From positions 64,001-128,000 of IMG/VR virus record IMGVR_UViG_3300037400_005024: a stretch of DNA of 64,000 nucleotides; one strand, given 5' to 3'. Positions 3,763 to 54,405 of the stretch are shown here, in pieces (position 1 is the first letter of the stretch; each line of letters opens with the position of its first letter). This DNA comes from a virus (taxonomy: Duplodnaviria; Caudoviricetes). The translations under genes and the position numbers were made by a program. The notes beneath the pieces were generated by a model. That model was not told the origin of the DNA. It made no database searches and was given only the letters and a program-made list of their open reading frames with translations.

Positions 3763-4114
3763 AGAATTTAATATCTAAACTATCCTCTTTTAAAAAATTT
3801 TTACATATGCAATCTATCAATTCTTCTTTTGATAAACCTTGTGTTTTTGAAATAAATACATGTGCTCTTCTTATATATATGAGTTTTAAAACAAATTCTT
3901 TAATAAAACCTATAGTCTTTGTTATCGGTATAAGAACTAATAACATCATAACTATAGGAAAACAAATACATTCTATAATATTTTTAAATGTTATTATTTG
4001 AGAAAAATATAACTTAACGCATGTTTCAATAAAAACAAGCACAAGTACACTAGAGATATAAAAATCTAAAAGTGCAATGAATGTGCTAAATTCAGCTAAC
4101 TCAACAAATAGCAT
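3731..4114 (-). CDS. Hypothetical membrane protein
   Basis: Two hydrophobic segments; overlaps both neighbours in an operon. Confidence 0.55.
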   Translation of the reverse strand: MLFVELAEFSTFIALLDFYISSVLVLVFIETCVKLYFSQIITFKNIIECICFPIVMMLLVLIPITKTIGFIKEFVLKLIYIRRAHVFISKTQGLSKEELIDCICKNFLKEDSLDIKFYVNDEDIHLE

Positions 4115-4802
4115 TTAATTCACAAAAACATGCTAGTATATTAAGATATTTATCACGTACTCTTGTTCCCATATCTTGATACTTTGCTAGAATTACAATT
4201 GCTCTTGAAATCTGTTCTGGCTTACTGAATAACTTATCAATATTTTTATAAAGAACACTGAAAAATGCATCAGGACAAGTTAAATTCTGAACACTCTTTG
4301 AAAGATTTTCAAAACTCTTTGATTTTAAAGCATTTATAATATCACTTAATTCATCATTTGAAATACCAGAAACATTAAGTTCACCTGTACTTGAATACTT
4401 TCTGAGATCAACTATCATACCTCTAACAGAAGGATAATTTTTATCAATAATCTTTCTGATTGACGAATTATCAAACTTAATATTCTCGTTATTAAGAATG
4501 AATAAAATTCTATTAACAATCTGAGGAACCATGTCAGTTTTGTCAAAATCTACAAAATCATAGTTTTCAAGTCTATTTAAAAGAGGTTCGATGATATTTT
4601 CTTTATAATTTCCTGTAAAAACGAATCTGCAATTGTTTGAAAATTCATCAATGAATCCGCGGTATGCAGCCTGTGCGTCCGGGGTTAATCTGTCACAATT
4701 ATGTGTTACAATACCGTTTTTTGTAATGAAAGTATGATTCTTGTGAACAGTTAAATTAATAACATGACCTTCATTTATTCTTTTTATACTTTTTATCTTC
4801 AT
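4101..4802 (-). CDS. gp44: Clamp loader large subunit C-terminal half, preceded by a 35-aa split-intein IntC
   Basis: MKIKSIK...NHTFITKNGIVTHN|CDRLTPDAQAAYR...CRFVFTGN..IIEPLLNR: intein blocks F/G followed by RFC-type AAA+ motifs. Confidence 0.92.
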   Translation of the reverse strand: MKIKSIKRINEGHVINLTVHKNHTFITKNGIVTHNCDRLTPDAQAAYRGFIDEFSNNCRFVFTGNYKENIIEPLLNRLENYDFVDFDKTDMVPQIVNRILFILNNENIKFDNSSIRKIIDKNYPSVRGMIVDLRKYSSTGELNVSGISNDELSDIINALKSKSFENLSKSVQNLTCPDAFFSVLYKNIDKLFSKPEQISRAIVILAKYQDMGTRVRDKYLNILACFCELNAIC

Positions 4803-6253
4803 TCAAAACATCTCCAAAGCTTTCTACAATAATCCTTCAAATCATCAGGAATATATGAAAACACATTATTATTATAATTTAATTTAAAGTAATTTTCATC
4901 GATTACCCTAAAACTCTTATTATTTTCTTTGCAATATTTTATTGCAGCATTAAATTTTAAAATATTTGTCTCATTTGTTTTACATGAGTTTGGCTTTATT
5001 TCAAATAATGTATTTTTATCAGAGAAGTCTACAATATAATTTCGTTTGTTTCCATCAATAATATATGGTATTCTAACTTTCTCATAATCTAATTTGTTTT
5101 TCTTAATTTTACACTCAATTATATAAAATAAAAATTCCCAGGATGATCTAAATTTAATATTATCAATTTTAAACTTTTTAGAATGTGTCCACGAATTTGT
5201 AATATTTGGTGTAAATCTACCTTCAGCAATTGCATTTTTTAATTTGTTAGATAAATTTTTACGATATTCATCACTTCGTTCATACAATGAAAAACATTTA
5301 TTATAACACTTTCGTGAGCATGAAAATGTTGCTCCTATTTGAATCAACTGAAGTTTTCCGTCTTTTAAGATTTTATCATATTTAACATATTTTTTCCCGC
5401 AACACGCACATGTATTAAGCATATCAGGTTCATAAATTTTATTAAAAACAAATGAAAATGATGAATTAACTTGGGGACGTTGCAAAAAATAATTGTTAAA
5501 AATAATTGCGCGATCATATAATAAATTTTTAATTTGTTTAAAAGTATATTTGCGTGATAATTCTAATAATTTTGAATTTGAAAATTTTTTCAATTTTAAA
5601 TTAAGCAAATATAGTTTAAAATCAATTTCTGAAAATTTCTTGTAATCATCATAATATTTCATTAGGTGTCCTTTGTTACATCCATGACAAATACAAGGAT
5701 TTTTAGAAAATAAATTTATTATAATCTTATGTTTACAAAATATACATTTAGACTCTCGATCAAATAGTTTTAAAAATATTCTCTTTTTAAACGATGCTGG
5801 ACTTTTAATAACTCTATTATCGTAAATATCTTTAAAAGGAAATTTAACATTTTTATAAAATTCAAGATTGTTTAGAACAAATTCGCTATATTGCTGTCTA
5901 TGCAAATTTTTTGTTTCAATATTATTTTTTAAAAATAATTTTCTCGTACATTCTTTATTGGAACATGTTTGGCCGTACCCTTTAAAAATGCTAATAAATC
6001 TCGCAGCATTTTGACAAAATAAGCATTTGCAAACATTATCATTGTTTAATTTATTAAACAATTTTTGAGGCGTTAAATTTTTGTATTTGCTAAAAAAATT
6101 AGTAGGCCTAACTTTTGAAATATGCTTTAATAAAATTTCACGTTCATTTTTTGAAAACACAATTTCGTTTTCATTTTCGTTCTTATCAAATATTTCAATC
6201 TTTTCAAGAATTCCTGAAATATCAGAAGTAGCAGACGATATCATCGTTTTCAT
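4799..6253 (-). CDS. Free-standing homing-endonuclease-like protein (CxxC repeats plus TnsA-like PD-(D/E)xK domain)
   Basis: FRSSWE...YEKVRIPY...NYIVDF...FEIKP; several CxxC pairs; lies between the two gp44 halves. Confidence 0.8.
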   Translation of the reverse strand: MKTMISSATSDISGILEKIEIFDKNENENEIVFSKNEREILLKHISKVRPTNFFSKYKNLTPQKLFNKLNNDNVCKCLFCQNAARFISIFKGYGQTCSNKECTRKLFLKNNIETKNLHRQQYSEFVLNNLEFYKNVKFPFKDIYDNRVIKSPASFKKRIFLKLFDRESKCIFCKHKIIINLFSKNPCICHGCNKGHLMKYYDDYKKFSEIDFKLYLLNLKLKKFSNSKLLELSRKYTFKQIKNLLYDRAIIFNNYFLQRPQVNSSFSFVFNKIYEPDMLNTCACCGKKYVKYDKILKDGKLQLIQIGATFSCSRKCYNKCFSLYERSDEYRKNLSNKLKNAIAEGRFTPNITNSWTHSKKFKIDNIKFRSSWEFLFYIIECKIKKNKLDYEKVRIPYIIDGNKRNYIVDFSDKNTLFEIKPNSCKTNETNILKFNAAIKYCKENNKSFRVIDENYFKLNYNNNVFSYIPDDLKDYCRKLWRCFE

Positions 6254-6857
6254 TTAAACCTTCTTTAATACTCTTCTGAATGAATTTACCATTTTCTCTA
6301 ACGATAAATGGGTGATTATCGGTTACTTTAATTGTTCTACCATCAGCAAGTTCAACTTGATAAATTGTATCATTTTTAGATGAAATAACTTCGCATGTAT
6401 CATCTTCGAATGAACCAGTATTCATGTTGAAAGACTTACATTTGTAAATTTTACCAATTTCAAGGTCTTTTAACTTCCTTGGAACTTCTTTATTGTCTTC
6501 AATTAAAATTACTTCTTCATTTTCATCTAAGCACTCATCCATAATTACAACTTTCAGTTTATTCGAAATTGAACGTCTTGATGCAAATGAATGAATTTCA
6601 TTTCTAATTAAGTCAATACCTTTATTTAAAGATGCGTTTACCCAGTATGCTTCAACGTTTTGATGATTTGCAATTGCATTTGCTAGACTTGACTTACCTA
6701 GACCTGGTAAGTATGACCAAAGTCCTAAGTTCGGTAGTGTTCCATTTTCAAGTCCAGTTTTAATAGAAGTTCTGAGTTTTTCTGGTAAAATAACATCATC
6801 AATTGTCTGTGGTTTGTATTTTTCAGACCAAATGGACTGCTTTTCATCAATTAGCAT
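6222..6857 (-). CDS. gp44: Clamp loader large subunit N-terminal half fused to a 103-aa split-intein IntN
   Basis: WSEKYKP, PGLGKSS (Walker A), NAS, VVIMDE|CLDENEEV (intein block A at 6533), VTDNHPF (block B). Confidence 0.92.
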   Translation of the reverse strand: MLIDEKQSIWSEKYKPQTIDDVILPEKLRTSIKTGLENGTLPNLGLWSYLPGLGKSSLANAIANHQNVEAYWVNASLNKGIDLIRNEIHSFASRRSISNKLKVVIMDECLDENEEVILIEDNKEVPRKLKDLEIGKIYKCKSFNMNTGSFEDDTCEVISSKNDTIYQVELADGRTIKVTDNHPFIVRENGKFIQKSIKEGLNENDDIVCYF

Positions 6858-40001: not shown

Positions 40002-41735
40002 TTAAATATCATCTACTTTATTCATAAGAATCAAATCACCTTGATTTAACTCTGAAGAATGAACTCTAATAATGTTATTATTTCTAACAATCTGGAAATA
40101 ATCATTTTCTGTAAATGTTAGGAACTGATTTGAATCAGTTAAAGCAAAGAACTCACCATGTCTATTTTTTCCAACAAGAGTTATCTTAATTGCTTTAGTA
40201 TCTTTATTAAACTTTGATTTTAAAAGTCTGTAATAAGCAAAACCTGATTTAATTTCTTTAGCACTTAAGAACTTAAACTGATTATCGCGTGTATCATAAA
40301 CCTTTAATCTATGGTTTTCACCACATAGAACATCACCTGATTTTGTTTTAAAATGAATAACATTTTTAAGTGAAGTACTAATACCAGAAACTTTTACAGG
40401 TCTGAAATTTTCATCTAAAAGTGTTTCGTTAACTCTTAAATTTCTAATCTTTTTAGTTGTAAAATCAGACATCATAACGTCTGTATTCTGTTCTAAACAT
40501 TCACCTTCAACAATCAGAAGATATTTAGACTCACCAATAGCAGGAAGATATTTGTCATTTTTAATCTTTTTAGGAGTATTTAAAGACTTCATTTCCTGGC
40601 GTCTTTTTAACTCTTCCTTGATTTTGTAAACTTCTGTAATAGGATCAATTATGTCCTTATTTCTAAGAATCTTCTTAACAAAGTTTTCGTAATCAATTTC
40701 ACCAAAATAATCATTCATCTCAGTGTTAGAATTTGTGATTTTCTCTTTTGACTGAGAATTGAACTTAGGATTTGGAAACTCTTTTAAAAATGCTATAATA
40801 AAAAGCTTATTTTTAATATCACCTGGCTTAATTGATTTAAACTTTTTAACTAACTTATCACGAATTCTGTTAACGATATTCATTGAAATAATATCAATAT
40901 GAGTTCCACCGTCATTTATCTTAAGTCCATCAACATAAGAGAACTGTCTGAAATCATCATTTTCATTATGCAAAACAGCAAAGCTATAATTTTCTGTTTC
41001 ATAAATTTCAGGATTCTCTCCGAATAATGAAACGTACTTTTTAAAAGAATTAATGTTTATAGTTTTGCCATTAAACTTAAATGAAATTTCAGGATAGGTT
41101 AAGTTTAAATTTATAAGTCTCTGTTTAATAATTAAAATGTGATTTTCATCAATTTCTGTAAGTCCAAATCTCTTAAGATCTGGTTTAAACGATACTGTAA
41201 CACCAGTATTTCCAGTAGAATCTGAAACTGTTGTTTTACAATTCTCTGCATTATCAGAAAAATGACAAGTAACTTTCTTGTTACCATCATCTGAGATACC
41301 GTTAAATTTTACAGAGAAACAATTTGTACAGAAAGATCCTACACCATTCATACCAATCTGAGTTCTGTGAGCATCATCTTCAAAGTTTGAACCAGATCTC
41401 ATGGTACCCCATGCAACTTCTGCTGAAGTTTTACCATTGATTAGATCGTAAGGAATTCCTGTTCCATCATCTTTAACTTCTACAGTATCAGAAGTCATTT
41501 TAACAGAAATATGAGTTCCTTTTGTAAACTTTGATTTAATGCAAGCATCTACGGAGTTATCAATAATCTCATTGATAATTTTTATCAGTCCAGGAACATA
41601 TGAAATTTCTTTATTTTCAATTTTATTATTTTCAAAAATGTACTCTGAAAATGAGCTGCTATTGACAGCTCCAATGTACATTGCTGGTCTTTTTAGGACG
41701 TGATCACGATCAGTTAAAACTTGTACTTTCATCAA
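40002..41735 (-). CDS. gp39: Type II topoisomerase ATPase subunit (gp39-like) ending in a 165-aa split-intein IntN
   Basis: RPAMYIG, EIIDNS, DDGTGIP, GMNGVG, FNSQSKE, VEGE|CLEQNT (intein starts at 40499), GENHRL. Confidence 0.9.
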   Translation of the reverse strand: MMKVQVLTDRDHVLKRPAMYIGAVNSSSFSEYIFENNKIENKEISYVPGLIKIINEIIDNSVDACIKSKFTKGTHISVKMTSDTVEVKDDGTGIPYDLINGKTSAEVAWGTMRSGSNFEDDAHRTQIGMNGVGSFCTNCFSVKFNGISDDGNKKVTCHFSDNAENCKTTVSDSTGNTGVTVSFKPDLKRFGLTEIDENHILIIKQRLINLNLTYPEISFKFNGKTININSFKKYVSLFGENPEIYETENYSFAVLHNENDDFRQFSYVDGLKINDGGTHIDIISMNIVNRIRDKLVKKFKSIKPGDIKNKLFIIAFLKEFPNPKFNSQSKEKITNSNTEMNDYFGEIDYENFVKKILRNKDIIDPITEVYKIKEELKRRQEMKSLNTPKKIKNDKYLPAIGESKYLLIVEGECLEQNTDVMMSDFTTKKIRNLRVNETLLDENFRPVKVSGISTSLKNVIHFKTKSGDVLCGENHRLKVYDTRDNQFKFLSAKEIKSGFAYYRLLKSKFNKDTKAIKITLVGKNRHGEFFALTDSNQFLTFTENDYFQIVRNNNIIRVHSSELNQGDLILMNKVDDI

Positions 41736-43172: not shown

Positions 43173-44822
43173 TTAAAAATCAAAAAGATCCATTGCCTTT
43201 TCTTTAACGGTGAAATTGATTGCATTAGTCATAAATTCTAAAGGTTTTATAAATGACTTTTCAAATTGTGTATCATAGTCAATATAATCTTTAAAATACT
43301 GAATAAAATTATCATCAGTGAATGCAATTACATCTGGATAAGAACTTTTAACTGTTCTACCAGTTGTATTTTTAATTGTTTCGCCTAAGGTGTTAGGTGT
43401 TTTAAGATAAATGTATTTAATCTTATCACCAGCTTGGATTAAATTAAATGATCCTTCTAAATTGTGCTTTTTAATAAATTCATTATATATTAAAGATGCT
43501 CTTGAATTCAATGGAATTCCAAGGTCTTTTCTTAAGTCATAATCAATGCAATTTACAGTCATGTTAGAAACAATATCAGATACTGGAGCATTGATGAATT
43601 CTGTTTTGCACCTTTCAAACCATTCTCTAAGATCTTTCTGAGTTCCATCGAAAAGAATTGGAAGTGCATCACTCATGTGTTCAATTGAAAATTTAGGTGT
43701 ACTTGATTTAATTAGTTCAACACCCATTGCTTTGATTTTAGGTGAATCAACTGGAAAAACTGTTGCTTCATTTGCTCTGAGTCTGCAGAGATACTTTTTC
43801 TTTTTAAGTAATAAAAATCTATCTGCGATAATTTCTCTTTTTCCACCACATTTAGATTTATCCATTGCGTTAAGATAATAACAAAATTCGTCAATATTTT
43901 CTTGAATTTTTGGCTGAACAACTTCTGTTTCAAACTTATCGCAGAAATCTACAATTTCACTTAAAGAAGCATCTGGCTTTTTCTTTAAAAACTCTTCTAC
44001 AAATGGTTCAATTGTATAATATGCAGAATTATGTAATAAAATGTCATTTCCGAAAAAGTTATGATTATCTTCTACTTCAATATCATAAACATCTAATTCT
44101 TGAATGCCTAAATCTTCAATTTTATAATTTTCTGTTATAACGTTATCTTTTAGGTTGTTTGAAATTAGCTCATCTGTTTTTAAAATTTCAGTAGGTTTTA
44201 CAGAAATTAAGTTATCATTTCTGTTTATCATTACTGAGTGATCTTCAGTAATAATGACAGATTTATTATTTACAGATATTTTAAACATTCTTTTGTTTAC
44301 TTCATGTTTCATCACGTAAATAATTTTTTTATCCTGAATTTCAAAATCTGAATTCATAGATTTAGCTAAAATCTTTTCATCTAATCTTTTAACAAAAGAA
44401 CCATTTTCATTTTTTACAATTTCACCAGATCTTTCAAATAAATCTTCAATTTTAATTTTGCCTAGCGATGTTGAAATTAAAGTATCTCCAACACAAGAAT
44501 CCGTATCACTATAAATGTAATATGGTTTATTCCAGTTCTTTAAACTCTGAAGATGATTTTCAATTCTTCTTCCAAAAGATTTAATGAAATATCTACCATT
44601 TCCTGTAATAGCCTGTGCTATCTTTTCGTTAATTAAAATAAATGCTTTGTTACCTAAAGCACCATATAAAGAATTGATTAAAGTTTTTAAAGAAATCTGA
44701 AGAATATGAAATTCATTACTCTTATCTTGAGTAAATTTTAACAGAGATTCAAGTTCTGAATCAGATAGCTTTTCAAGATCTTCTCTTGAACAATTTAAAA
44801 CATCGAAATTTGTAGAATTCAT
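43173..44822 (-). CDS. gp43: Family B DNA polymerase C-terminal subunit (split gp43) with a 157-aa mini-intein
   Basis: KTLINSLYG, YSDTD|S, KKKY, GVELIKSSTP; no exonuclease domain or motif A. Confidence 0.92.
   Translation of the reverse strand: MNSTNFDVLNCSREDLEKLSDSELESLLKFTQDKSNEFHILQISLKTLINSLYGALGNKAFILINEKIAQAITGNGRYFIKSFGRRIENHLQSLKNWNKPYYIYSDTDSCVGDTLISTSLGKIKIEDLFERSGEIVKNENGSFVKRLDEKILAKSMNSDFEIQDKKIIYVMKHEVNKRMFKISVNNKSVIITEDHSVMINRNDNLISVKPTEILKTDELISNNLKDNVITENYKIEDLGIQELDVYDIEVEDNHNFFGNDILLHNSAYYTIEPFVEEFLKKKPDASLSEIVDFCDKFETEVVQPKIQENIDEFCYYLNAMDKSKCGGKREIIADRFLLLKKKKYLCRLRANEATVFPVDSPKIKAMGVELIKSSTPKFSIEHMSDALPILFDGTQKDLREWFERCKTEFINAPVSDIVSNMTVNCIDYDLRKDLGIPLNSRASLIYNEFIKKHNLEGSFNLIQAGDKIKYIYLKTPNTLGETIKNTTGRTVKSSYPDVIAFTDDNFIQYFKDYIDYDTQFEKSFIKPLEFMTNAINFTVKEKAMDLFDF
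44028..44498 (-). mobile_element. Contiguous mini-intein in polymerase motif C, no endonuclease
   Basis: DTD|SCVGDT...ITEDHS...VYDIEVEDNHNFFGNDILLHN|SAY. Confidence 0.92.
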
Positions 44823-44920: not shown

Positions 44921-46510
44921 TTAAACGTACATAGAAGCAATTCGTGCCCAAGATTCAACACCAGCATCTTGTAATGCCATACCTATGACTGCTGAACGGA
45001 TTGTTAAAGGCTTACGTTTACGTGCAATTTCAGGAGTCATATAAGTAACTTCTTCATCAGCATCTGGAATAGCCATACCTAAAGCTTCAAAGAACTTATC
45101 TAACTGCTCATCACTCTTATTAGGATACTTAGCCTTCATAATAGACTTTGTTCTGTTATACATATCTCTTGCACATAAGTAAACATCAATAAAGATTGAA
45201 CGTGACTTAATTGCATCTTCAATCTGAGAAGCTCTCATGTTAGAAATGAAAATCATCTCACCATCAAAATAGAACTTTGATGGAACAACCATTTCGCCAT
45301 CTTTTACTTTATTAACATTCTGTGTAAACACTAAAGAATCAGCGTCATCACATTGTGCACAGTAATCTCTAATCTCTGCTTCTGATTTACCGTTCATAGG
45401 ATAAGTACCAGTTATGTATTCCATAGCTGGCTTACCTGAAGTATCTAAAGCAGGCTTTAGCATCATGATTGTATCAGGTTGTGATAAAATGTCATCTGCT
45501 TCATCCCAAACCTGTAAAACATCACGCTCTCTAAATACTGTAGAATAGAATGAACGAGGAGCTATTTTTGCACCTGAATGATATGTGTACTTATCACCTG
45601 CTTCACCTAGAACTCTCTTAAGTGTTGAAGTAACCTCGTAAGTTTTACCAGTACCACCCTCACCACAGATGATAAGTGACTTAGAACCACCCTTAGCAAC
45701 GAACTCAGTTACTGTCTTAATATCTTCAAAAACATATTTTGGATCTGCGTAAACATTATCATCAAACTGCTTCTGAGTACTTATTACATTATTCTGAACT
45801 GAGTTAGTTTCTTTCTTACCCTTTTCTAAAGTAGCATAGAACTCATTCCACTCGTCTTCTAAACCCTCTTGCTCAACGTAATCTGCAAATTTACCAGGTA
45901 AAGCTGCACTAACCTTCTTATTACGATCTCTTAAGAAATTCTGACGTTGGACAATTGTTGATCTTCCTAAATCAACTGCTTCAGTGATAAAATCATCAAG
46001 CTTGAAAGTACCAACTTTCTTCTTTCTTAATAATTCACATAACTTCTCATAAATCTGAACAACATTGCAAGATGATGAGAAATTACATGTGATTGTTGGA
46101 CGATCTAACTCGTGGTTATCCTTATCCCAGTAATCTAAAGAATCAACAATAAAGGTATCACGCTTAGGTGTCTCTTTAAAAGCAGTAATATTACCCTTTA
46201 AGAAACCAAAACGTAACTGATAACCATGCTTGTTAAATAAACGATAACCGAAACCCTTAGTACCATCTTGACGTTGGAACTCTTCAGTAAATGTAACCTT
46301 GAACTCACCGCCAAACTTCTTACCAAACAACTTGCCGTATAACTTAGTTACCTTATCTAACTTATCACTGGTAAACTGTGCCTCTGTTAAAGGCATTCCG
46401 ACATCAACTGAATCAGGATCTAAAGATCTTTGTGGATTATATAAAATATTTGACTCAGTTGTCAAATGAGGTGCGTTAATTTTCTCGAGAAAATCAATGA
46501 ACGTTAACAT
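44921..46510 (-). CDS. Late AAA+ ATPase with large N-terminal domain
   Basis: GEGGTGKT, WDEAD, IFISN, AIKSRS; late promoter 46578-46585; MLTFIDFLE start. Confidence 0.75.
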   Translation of the reverse strand: MLTFIDFLEKINAPHLTTESNILYNPQRSLDPDSVDVGMPLTEAQFTSDKLDKVTKLYGKLFGKKFGGEFKVTFTEEFQRQDGTKGFGYRLFNKHGYQLRFGFLKGNITAFKETPKRDTFIVDSLDYWDKDNHELDRPTITCNFSSSCNVVQIYEKLCELLRKKKVGTFKLDDFITEAVDLGRSTIVQRQNFLRDRNKKVSAALPGKFADYVEQEGLEDEWNEFYATLEKGKKETNSVQNNVISTQKQFDDNVYADPKYVFEDIKTVTEFVAKGGSKSLIICGEGGTGKTYEVTSTLKRVLGEAGDKYTYHSGAKIAPRSFYSTVFRERDVLQVWDEADDILSQPDTIMMLKPALDTSGKPAMEYITGTYPMNGKSEAEIRDYCAQCDDADSLVFTQNVNKVKDGEMVVPSKFYFDGEMIFISNMRASQIEDAIKSRSIFIDVYLCARDMYNRTKSIMKAKYPNKSDEQLDKFFEALGMAIPDADEEVTYMTPEIARKRKPLTIRSAVIGMALQDAGVESWARIASMYV

Positions 46511-53394: not shown

Positions 53395-54405
53395 TTATAA
53401 AATAGTTTTAATTTTAACTTGTGCTAACACACCTTCATATAAATTGTTTAAAATAATTTCTTTAACATTCTTTCCAGCTTTTAACATTTCGTTACAGTCC
53501 TTTTCAGGTTCTGAATGAATTAAAACTTTATAACCTCGCTTTGCGTATTTTAACATATTTAGCAATCCTGTTCTATCATTATCAAGACAAAATACAGGTT
53601 CTTTAAGTTCTTTTAGTCTCTCATCAGGAAGTTGTGCACCTAAACAAGCAATGCAATTACTTAAACCAGACTGAATCGCACTTAAAGCATCAAAAATACC
53701 TTCAAAAATATAAACAGGCTTTTCTTTATCAACATTAAAGAAATTCCAAACTTTATAAGAATTATTTTCAGGATTCATGTAAGTACAGAATTTCTTTTCA
53801 GAAATATTTCTTGAATAAAAGCCATACCATTCAAAGTTTTCGTTGTACAACGGAATAATGATTGAATTTCTAAGATTGTGTTCTTTTTCACCGATTTTTA
53901 AAACTGTATTTGAATAAAACAATTTCATTGAAGTGTTGTATTTAAAACCGCGACTTTCAAAATAGTCAAGTGCTGGTTTATAAGATTCTAATGGTTTGAA
54001 ATACTCTGAAAAATCTTGGTAAATTAGTTTTACACCACTTGAAGCGCTTGAATTATTGGCAGCGCTGTCATTATTTTTACTTTCGTTACTTTCAATTTTA
54101 AAATCTTCTAATATATTAAACAAAGATTTTCTTTTATATTCAGAAATATACTTGTCATATAAACTAGGATAAAATTCTTTTAGAAAAGAAAATATGTTTT
54201 TGTTGTGAACTGGACAATCGCCATTAAAACAGTTTACAAATGAGGCATTGCATGCGCTGTATAAATGCAATCTAGCTTTGTTTTCAGATTTTCTTGAATC
54301 ACCACAAACAGGACATCTTGCAACAATTTCATTTGGTGATTCTTTTCTAATTCGTTCAGTACCAACTGCGAGTTTAAAGTACTTAACATCATTTTGATCA
54401 AGCAT
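53395..54405 (-). CDS. gp61: DNA primase
   Basis: RCPVCGDS..CFNGDC zinc finger; FEGIFDA; LDND Toprim. Confidence 0.92.
   Translation of the reverse strand: MLDQNDVKYFKLAVGTERIRKESPNEIVARCPVCGDSRKSENKARLHLYSACNASFVNCFNGDCPVHNKNIFSFLKEFYPSLYDKYISEYKRKSLFNILEDFKIESNESKNNDSAANNSSASSGVKLIYQDFSEYFKPLESYKPALDYFESRGFKYNTSMKLFYSNTVLKIGEKEHNLRNSIIIPLYNENFEWYGFYSRNISEKKFCTYMNPENNSYKVWNFFNVDKEKPVYIFEGIFDALSAIQSGLSNCIACLGAQLPDERLKELKEPVFCLDNDRTGLLNMLKYAKRGYKVLIHSEPEKDCNEMLKAGKNVKEIILNNLYEGVLAQVKIKTIL

Follow-up and report, generated by a model that had tools for sequence, protein, structure and literature searches.

A probable trans-splicing split intein with distant halves and an enlarged N-terminal part in a phage type II topoisomerase

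Introduction

Where is the second half of a phage topoisomerase subunit that stops inside its Toprim motif and continues as an N-intein, and what is the surplus length of this N-intein? Both questions are raised by gene 1, located on the minus strand at positions 40002-41735 of a 64-kb window, the whole stretch of DNA analysed, which comprises positions 64001-128000 of the 158,253-bp virus record IMGVR_UViG_3300037400_005024. Whole-genome coordinates carry the prefix G000. The record has direct terminal repeats, is rated complete by CheckV and has a G+C content of 28.8%. The replication genes of this phage are T4-like; among named phages, the Campylobacter phages of the CP220 group come closest in the topoisomerase gene (55% identity, residues 4-411 versus gp39), and nearer relatives of this gene originate from gut metagenomes. 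We favour, with a rough probability of 0.78, a class-1-type split intein in gp39 at EG[E]/SA (the slash marks the splice junction), with its halves on distant genes and with a block-B-like unit as extension of the N-intein (IntN).

The N-terminal half

Gene 1 comprises an N-extein and an N-intein, the latter consisting of a core and an extension:

40002-41735 (G000:104002-105735), minus strand: N-part of the gp39-type topoisomerase II large subunit, continuing into a 165-aa N-intein; 577 amino acids (aa) from TTG
40500-41735, minus strand: N-extein, residues 1-412, with GHKL ATPase, transducer and the Toprim start up to ...YLLIVEGE (Pfam; colinearity with CP220 gp39)
40200-40499, minus strand: N-intein core, residues 413-512 (intein 1-100); Cys1 at 40497-40499, block B GENH at 40311-40322 (intein residues 60-63)
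40005-40199, minus strand: C-terminal extension of the N-intein, residues 513-577 (intein 101-165); TEND, at 40101-40112, stands in the place of the block-B TxxH

The true start is probably the ATG at 41732, one codon after the TTG, which would give 576 aa as in the homologues. Pfam assigned HATPase_c (PF02518) and DNA_gyraseB (PF00204) to residues 49-379 and gave a sub-threshold Hom_end_hint match from residue 413. The junction at 40508-40497 reads GAA GGT GAA / TGT, that is EGE/C, and lies in the start of the Toprim motif EGxSA. The N-intein of 165 aa (40005-40499) ends with ...NKVDDI-stop, without HN. A first-pass annotation of the window had described exactly this, an ATPase subunit that stops at EGE/C and continues as a 165-aa IntN without a terminal HN, and the reading of the sequence confirmed it. 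The window itself holds no IntC-Toprim topoisomerase gene, as had likewise been noted; the only other Toprim match in it is a DnaG-type primase at 53395-54405.

The partner gene and the four-gene topoisomerase

A Toprim search of the whole genome revealed a single topoisomerase-type match, G000:24453-24674, directly upstream of a gp52-like gene. Three consecutive open reading frames (ORFs) are found at this site:

G000:24656-25081, minus strand: 141-aa ORF, C-intein (IntC, 48 aa) followed by C-extein (93 aa), reading M...FLLANGIVSHN/SALGG
consecutive after the 141-aa ORF with a 4-nt overlap (ATGA), G000:24147-25081 spanning both, minus strand: gp60-like ORF, 170 aa, with DQDLDG (phrog_7229, E 1e-29; phrog_543)
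third in the row, after the gp60-like ORF, minus strand: gp52/GyrA-like ORF, 444 aa (PF00521, E 3e-75; phrog_551, E 2e-129)

The 48-aa C-intein ends with ...CVDISVDSDDRTFLLANGIVSHN/SALGG, and the C-extein begins with SALGGLLPSLGR..., the remainder of the Toprim motif. PF14890 matches the C-intein weakly and over model positions 121-155 only (E 0.19). The 141-aa ORF possesses its own AGGA ribosome-binding site and an AT-rich spacer of ~100 nt. The genes for the N-half and the C-half are on the same strand and 79 kb apart, about half the genome.

The exteins complement each other. In separate alignments to the uninterrupted gp39 of CP220 (503 aa), the N-extein ends at EGF and the C-extein starts at the next residue with SAYGG, leaving neither gap nor overlap at the junction. 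The C-extein alignment reaches the end of CP220 gp39, including the FYxIxIDG...NEND tail, a C-terminal extension tail (CTE). The joined exteins give a 505-aa protein that is colinear with the intein-free gp39. A 60%-identical IMG/VR relative (contig 3300015214_000024) carries a single fused gp39+gp60 gene that is intein-free and reads TEGASATGG. The CP220 gp39 alignment and this fused relative place the intein insertion at EG[E]/SA. Trans-splicing with a distant gene had been proposed in the first-pass annotation, and the genome holds such an IntC-Toprim gene, at G000:24656-25081, with abutting exteins; judged from the sequences, joining of the two products by protein splicing is very likely.

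The large subunit has a second, intein-free break, between the 141-aa IntC-gp39C ORF and the 170-aa gp60-like ORF. C-terminal and N-terminal extension tails (CTE/NTE) are present on both ORFs and absent from a fused 594-aa relative (L008). With two breaks in the large subunit, the topoisomerase therefore needs four genes. The gene set fits the large subunit of a T4-type topoisomerase II: GHKL ATPase, transducer, half a Toprim domain and CTE, with separate gp60-like and gp52-like genes.

In the proposed mechanism, gene 1 makes N-extein (412 aa)-IntN (165 aa) and the distant gene makes IntC (48 aa)-C-extein (93 aa). The basic end of the IntN core (...RLLKSKFNKD) would capture the acidic start of IntC (...ELVEIDSVTEE), whereupon the halves would form a single Hint domain, whose splicing would set full-length gp39 free. 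This protein would then join, by non-covalent contacts, the gp60-like and gp52-like subunits, whose genes neighbour the IntC gene.

Splicing residues, conservation and selection

The N-intein core runs from block A (CLEQ...) to a final basic strand (...YYRLLKSKFNKD). All residues of the splicing chemistry are present and conserved: Cys1, the block-B His, the block-F Asp, the terminal His-Asn and Ser+1. C413 (Cys1) and H475 (block-B His) were invariant in 13 homologues, and H47, N48 and Ser+1 (S49) of the IntC ORF were likewise invariant. For the IntC ORF, 243 homologues were found. PF05203 matched the core with its positions 1-54 (E 3e-5, 24.8 bits, curated cut-off 32.1), and the core resembles the N-intein of NrdD in the same genome (z 6.2, 30% identity). 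An AlphaFold2 model of the whole 165-aa IntN, based on an alignment of three rows, gave the core a predicted local distance difference test (pLDDT) score of 25-45 and the extension, its sole ordered part, 66-70; a poor model of the core is expected for an N-intein that lacks its partner. Foldseek with this whole-IntN model yielded nothing below E 0.01.

The halves are separated in IMG/VR relatives as well. Twenty-seven protein clusters (90% identity) of the same architecture have the 165-aa IntN in common, without indels. In G001 (IMGVR_UViG_3300045988_180922; 80% identity) the halves are likewise separated, by 83 kb, and P0152 (575 aa, IntN of 164 aa), which represents a third and more remote lineage, keeps the arrangement, the extension and a dCMP deaminase gene downstream. 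The IMG/VR search with the IntC gene gave only loci with the separated layout; an adjacent, un-dislocated arrangement was not found among them. Between the window and L005 (dS about 1), the N-extein and the C-extein had ratios of nonsynonymous to synonymous substitution rates (dN/dS) of 0.09 and 0.08, respectively; the corresponding values were 0.17 in the IntN core and 0.28 in the extension. For the extension the value is significantly below neutrality (Fisher p 2e-4), and this part of the sequence is under purifying selection. No indel separates the extensions of the three lineages that keep it, and all three retain a [ST]xND motif.

The neighbour of gene 1 had been named as a dCMP deaminase, an assignment borne out by Pfam; the same gene neighbours the N-half in L005 and L025:

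39454-39891, minus strand: dCMP deaminase, next gene downstream, outside the intein (PF00383, E 2e-22)

Charge polarity and the other inteins of the genome

The genome carries three split inteins, those of topoisomerase, gp44 and NrdD, besides two cis inteins, one in the polymerase and one in NrdD. The net charges of the split pairs are:

topoisomerase pair: IntN core +7, IntC -8
gp44 pair: IntN -8, IntC +5
NrdD pair: IntN 0, IntC -7

In gp41-1 and Npu DnaE, the last strand of IntN and the first of IntC are described as forming a charge zipper (bioRxiv 10.1101/546465). The corresponding strands are RLLKSKFNKD with ELVEIDSVTEE in the topoisomerase pair and LNENDD with MKIKSIKR in the gp44 pair. 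The first-pass annotation had held that the pair must be orthogonal to that of gp44 and that the extra unit might provide this specificity. The gp44 and topoisomerase pairs are oppositely polarised, therefore the extension is not needed for orthogonality to gp44. Cross-talk would be more conceivable between the topoisomerase and NrdD pairs, with their shared polarity and related N-cores. The C-inteins of topoisomerase and gp44 are related (z 9.1); the IntC sequences are 31-43% identical.

The gp44 clamp loader is fractured at window positions 4101-6857 into an N-part with a 103-aa IntN, a 484-aa endonuclease gene (phrog_15427, E 6e-24) and a 35-aa IntC with the C-part. NrdD, encoded outside the window at G000:48500-52557, contains a cis mini-intein (HSR/C...VVHN/CG) and also a terminal 112-aa N-intein after ...VMG/C. 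In the ORF that follows the NrdD N-part, a Zn-finger/nuclease-like region is fused to a C-intein ending with ...GVHSHN/CRTRV.

The C-terminal extension of the N-intein

The extension of 65 aa is located at the canonical split or endonuclease-insertion site of inteins. Modelled alone by AlphaFold2, it forms a six-strand beta domain (pLDDT 85.9, predicted template modelling score 0.65). The first-pass annotation had seen in it a second block-B-like unit, an apparent duplication of a Hint segment. The Hint likeness stood in part: PF14890 matched residues 491-576 with model positions 11-99 (E 0.0035 in the genome search; extension alone E 0.08, model positions 42-98), and BLASTP aligned the extension with the polymerase mini-intein of the same phage (E 6e-5, 30% identity over 61 of 65 residues) in the register of block B. 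The Smith-Waterman (SW) score of this pair had a z of 6.7, and 0 of 300 shuffles were as good. The term "duplicated" did not stand; the extension has no significant similarity to its own core (SW z -0.4, BLASTP not significant, hhalign P 0.19 over 2 columns). A relation to the block F/G region of C-inteins was rejected as well (z -1.2 versus the topoisomerase IntC, about 0 versus the gp44 IntC).

Further comparisons agree on the register. In a MAFFT alignment of the N-halves of the genome, TEND of the extension aligns on the block-B motifs GENH, TDNH, TDDH, TEDH and TPDH. The profile of the extension family was aligned by hhalign in the same register to the N-halves of other inteins (P 0.006); the genuine core reached P 0.032 with the same small profile. 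In a fold search of representatives, the extension model matched best the Npu intein 5ol6 (Z 6.2, root-mean-square deviation (rmsd) 2.6, 60 aligned residues), followed by the PolII mini-intein 5bkh (Z 5.7, rmsd 2.8, 53 aligned). Eight inteins, including PI-PfuI, KlbA, Npu DnaE-N, gp41-1 and NrdJ-1, were among the top 28 rows, all aligned on the block-B lobe. The homology evidence for a Hint origin is moderate, not conclusive. On balance we regard it as fairly probable that the extension derives from the block-B half of another intein and has lost the catalytic His (His to Asp in TEND).

Within the genome, the closest detectable relative of the extension lies 3 kb away:

44028-44495, minus strand: cis-splicing mini-intein of the DNA polymerase C-part, ~156 aa (PF14890 on residues 122-265)

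This mini-intein, located at DTDS (window 43173-44822), is absent from the polymerase C-part of the relatives L005:6905-8080 and L006:411-1589 (391-392 aa, DTDSAYYT) and is for this reason sporadic in the group; the similar topoisomerase extension is fixed. Directly upstream of the polymerase C-part, a 529-aa ORF (window 44921-46510) had weak P-loop matches and matches to PHROG families of unknown function; it gave no family-B polymerase or exonuclease signal.

A similar stretch was observed in a metagenomic, lipoprotein-like protein of 121 aa (P0157), whose terminal 50 residues resemble the extension (E 1e-3; ...TYTTDDFFVILRDKNILRVNSLDLNNGDYLIMG). This likeness hints that the extension domain may exist outside inteins. 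An apparent free-standing extension of 73 aa (P0149) was discarded as the artefact of a 1-nt frameshift in a 593-bp contig.

In one variant (P0028), present in two independent contigs from separate assemblies of samples ERZ28616095 and ERZ27280778 (L006:4400-4561, L007:2550-2771), IntN ends at residue 101 with ...KSKLNKNI-stop; the rest of the protein is 96% identical. The DNA homology to the window stops exactly at the boundary of core and extension, which thereby is marked as a module boundary, and another ORF (MDNNENVKHF...) begins 10 nt further on. Within 100 nt both contigs come to an end, which would suit the edge of a repeated or polymorphic, perhaps mobile, insert. A degenerate pattern for the downstream ORF had no match in viral or metagenome contigs and nothing meaningful in this genome. 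Since the more distant lineages keep the extension, a loss is the parsimonious reading of P0028. The variant suggests that the extension is dispensable for the splicing chemistry, for which it is probably not needed. The extension might keep an otherwise disordered IntN soluble, or offer a docking surface to the 11 extra N-terminal residues of IntC, a role that we put forward only tentatively. A still more speculative role would be that of a third lobe, a catalytically dead, autonomously folding half-Hint that acts as chaperone or affinity clamp, holds the N-fragment in solution until the product of the distant gene reaches it, docks the extra IntC segment and tunes the rate or the choice of partner among the three split inteins.

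Alternative explanations

Several observations weigh against a split intein enlarged by a Hint-derived unit. The Pfam Hint models stayed under their curated cut-offs (PF05203 24.8 versus 32.1 bits, PF14890 15.6 versus 35.8 bits); short split intein halves seldom reach the cut-offs of whole-domain hidden Markov models (HMMs). The Thr of block B is replaced by Gly in GENH and by Pro in the lineage P0152. For the extension, all Z values of the fold search were below 8 (maximum 6.2) and within the range of common beta arrangements, Foldseek with the extension model retrieved nothing below E 0.6, and the extensions of the two other lineages, L005 and L025, matched no Pfam Hint model, PF14890 included. 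An HMM of the three extension lineages, searched against the six-frame proteome of the phage, found only itself as significant (polymerase intein E 0.51). The existence of P0028 implies that any role of the extension is dispensable or lineage-specific.

Part of these results would suit an extension that is an unrelated small beta-barrel (SH3/OB/KOW-like), a passenger at the split site whose block-B likeness arose from a convergent beta-hairpin sequence. Besides the empty Foldseek result and the extensions of L005 and L025, this explanation can point to ribosomal protein S4e, an AXH domain and EF-P, which were interleaved with the inteins at Z 5.4-4.1, and to the representative search, which gave beta-propeller repeats and the lipoprotein-like P0157 (E 1e-3 to 5e-7). 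It has to accommodate, however, the BLASTP match of 61 of the 65 residues to a genuine intein, the hhalign alignment in the same register with a better P value than that of the genuine core, and the eight inteins of the fold search, aligned on the block-B half. We consider the passenger possible, though distinctly the less probable origin. Less plausible is an extension serving as specificity module against cross-splicing with the gp44 and NrdD split inteins. The co-occurrence of three split inteins in one genome and the purifying selection on the extension speak for such a function, as does the likeness of the topoisomerase and NrdD pairs, with two acidic C-inteins (-8, -7) and related IntN cores, where a discrimination beyond charge could help. 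Against it stand the charge polarity, which is already inverted with respect to gp44, the identity of just 31-43% among the IntC sequences and the lack of the extension in P0028.

The distant halves themselves might associate without splicing, the intein fragments being a non-covalent assembly tag. Precedents exist: the gp39/gp60 break of the same enzyme is already held non-covalently by element-derived tails (bioRxiv 10.1101/2022.08.31.505936), and a fragmented phage ribonucleotide reductase is reported to be assembled by such domains (PMC3045599). The block-B Thr, moreover, is not conserved. On the other side, none of Cys1, the block-B His, the block-F Asp, His-Asn and Ser+1 varies between the lineages, although dS is about 1. 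This invariance weighs against a non-splicing tag, because the catalytic positions could drift if splicing were lost; we regard the tag as very unlikely. Within the window the N-half looks orphaned, as a truncated, decaying remnant in a phage relying on the host enzyme would. Such a decay is highly implausible: the partner gene is present, which contradicts a truncation, the genome is complete and none of its four topoisomerase ORFs is disrupted, dN/dS amounts to 0.09-0.28 and the layout is conserved in three lineages.

Comparison with known systems and implications

The classic dislocated split intein is that of cyanobacterial DnaE (Ssp/Npu). The topoisomerase intein shares with it the separate loci without an endonuclease in between, the canonical split point, Cys1 and the terminal HN, and complementary net charges. 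Unlike DnaE, it resides in a phage type II topoisomerase, has an acidic IntC as in gp41-1 rather than the polarity of Npu DnaE, and has Ser at position +1; its IntN contains an extra folded domain of 65 aa, and its IntC ~11 extra N-terminal residues. With the fractured phage genes (gp41-1, NrdJ-1, IMPDH-1, PMC2677866; the phage's own gp44) it has in common that short split inteins interrupt enzymes of replication and nucleotide metabolism. In these, however, both halves lie in one locus around a free-standing endonuclease gene, whereas the topoisomerase halves are 79 kb apart without an endonuclease. A dislocated end stage (stage IV) is described in the gene-breaking model (Dassa et al. 2009, PMC2677866), and the layout found here corresponds to this final stage.

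In the systems nearest to this one, gp39 is either free of inteins or split in a different way. CP220 gp39 (Firehammervirus) and the fused gp39+gp60 gene of contig 3300015214_000024 are 55-60% identical over the N-extein and carry no intein at EG[F/A]/SA. For the metagenomic sequence MGS5, bioRxiv 10.1101/2022.08.31.505936 reports that Topo2L ORF1 is "split by a homing intein", whose Hint and HintC parts enclose a VSR endonuclease. This report implies that an intein in this topoisomerase is not wholly new. In both cases the interrupted protein is the large subunit of a T4-type topoisomerase, the phages are metagenomic and Campylobacter-phage-like, and the background is a MobA-derived gp39/gp60 break with CTE/NTE tails. 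In MGS5 the intein parts flank the endonuclease at one locus, whereas here the halves are distant and the N-intein is enlarged, neither of which is described for MGS5 in that source. Full-text literature searches turned up neither a split gp39 intein whose halves lie far apart nor an enlarged N-intein.

The preprint bioRxiv 10.1101/2022.08.31.505936 attributes the gp39/gp60 break with CTE/NTE tails in T4-like phages to an insertion of MobA, and reports for Firehammervirus the same break without endonuclease or bypass. In G001 the gp60-like gene (L024:2098-2150; likewise L027:4315-4584) has a 33-nt interruption, GAC / TAG CCC TTG CGG GCT ATA TAG AGG TGA TTT GAT / TTA (slashes here set off the flanking codons), with Asp codons at both ends, the first of them directly followed by a stop codon, and with a TAGCCC-TTGC-GGGCTA hairpin (-12.5 kcal/mol). 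The translational bypass in T4 gene 60 has this layout, which also fits the metagenomic Asp-take-off clades of that preprint. The genome of the window is uninterrupted at this position (GAT CAG GAT TTA GAC).

The genome unites all three layouts of intein-mediated gene breaking: fractured in gp44, with the endonuclease fused to IntC in NrdD, and dislocated in the topoisomerase. Split inteins are working tools whose use is limited by fragment solubility, speed and cross-reactivity. Three split and two cis inteins within 158 kb present a natural test bed for orthogonality, and the topoisomerase pair offers a charge polarity of the gp41-1 type and a Ser+1 junction for engineering. If it is true that the extension aids IntN, it would show how nature overcomes the poor behaviour of N-inteins in isolation. 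For the phage, the finding would mean that the products of four genes are made into one essential topoisomerase by two repair strategies: one break is mended by protein splicing, the other by element-derived tails.

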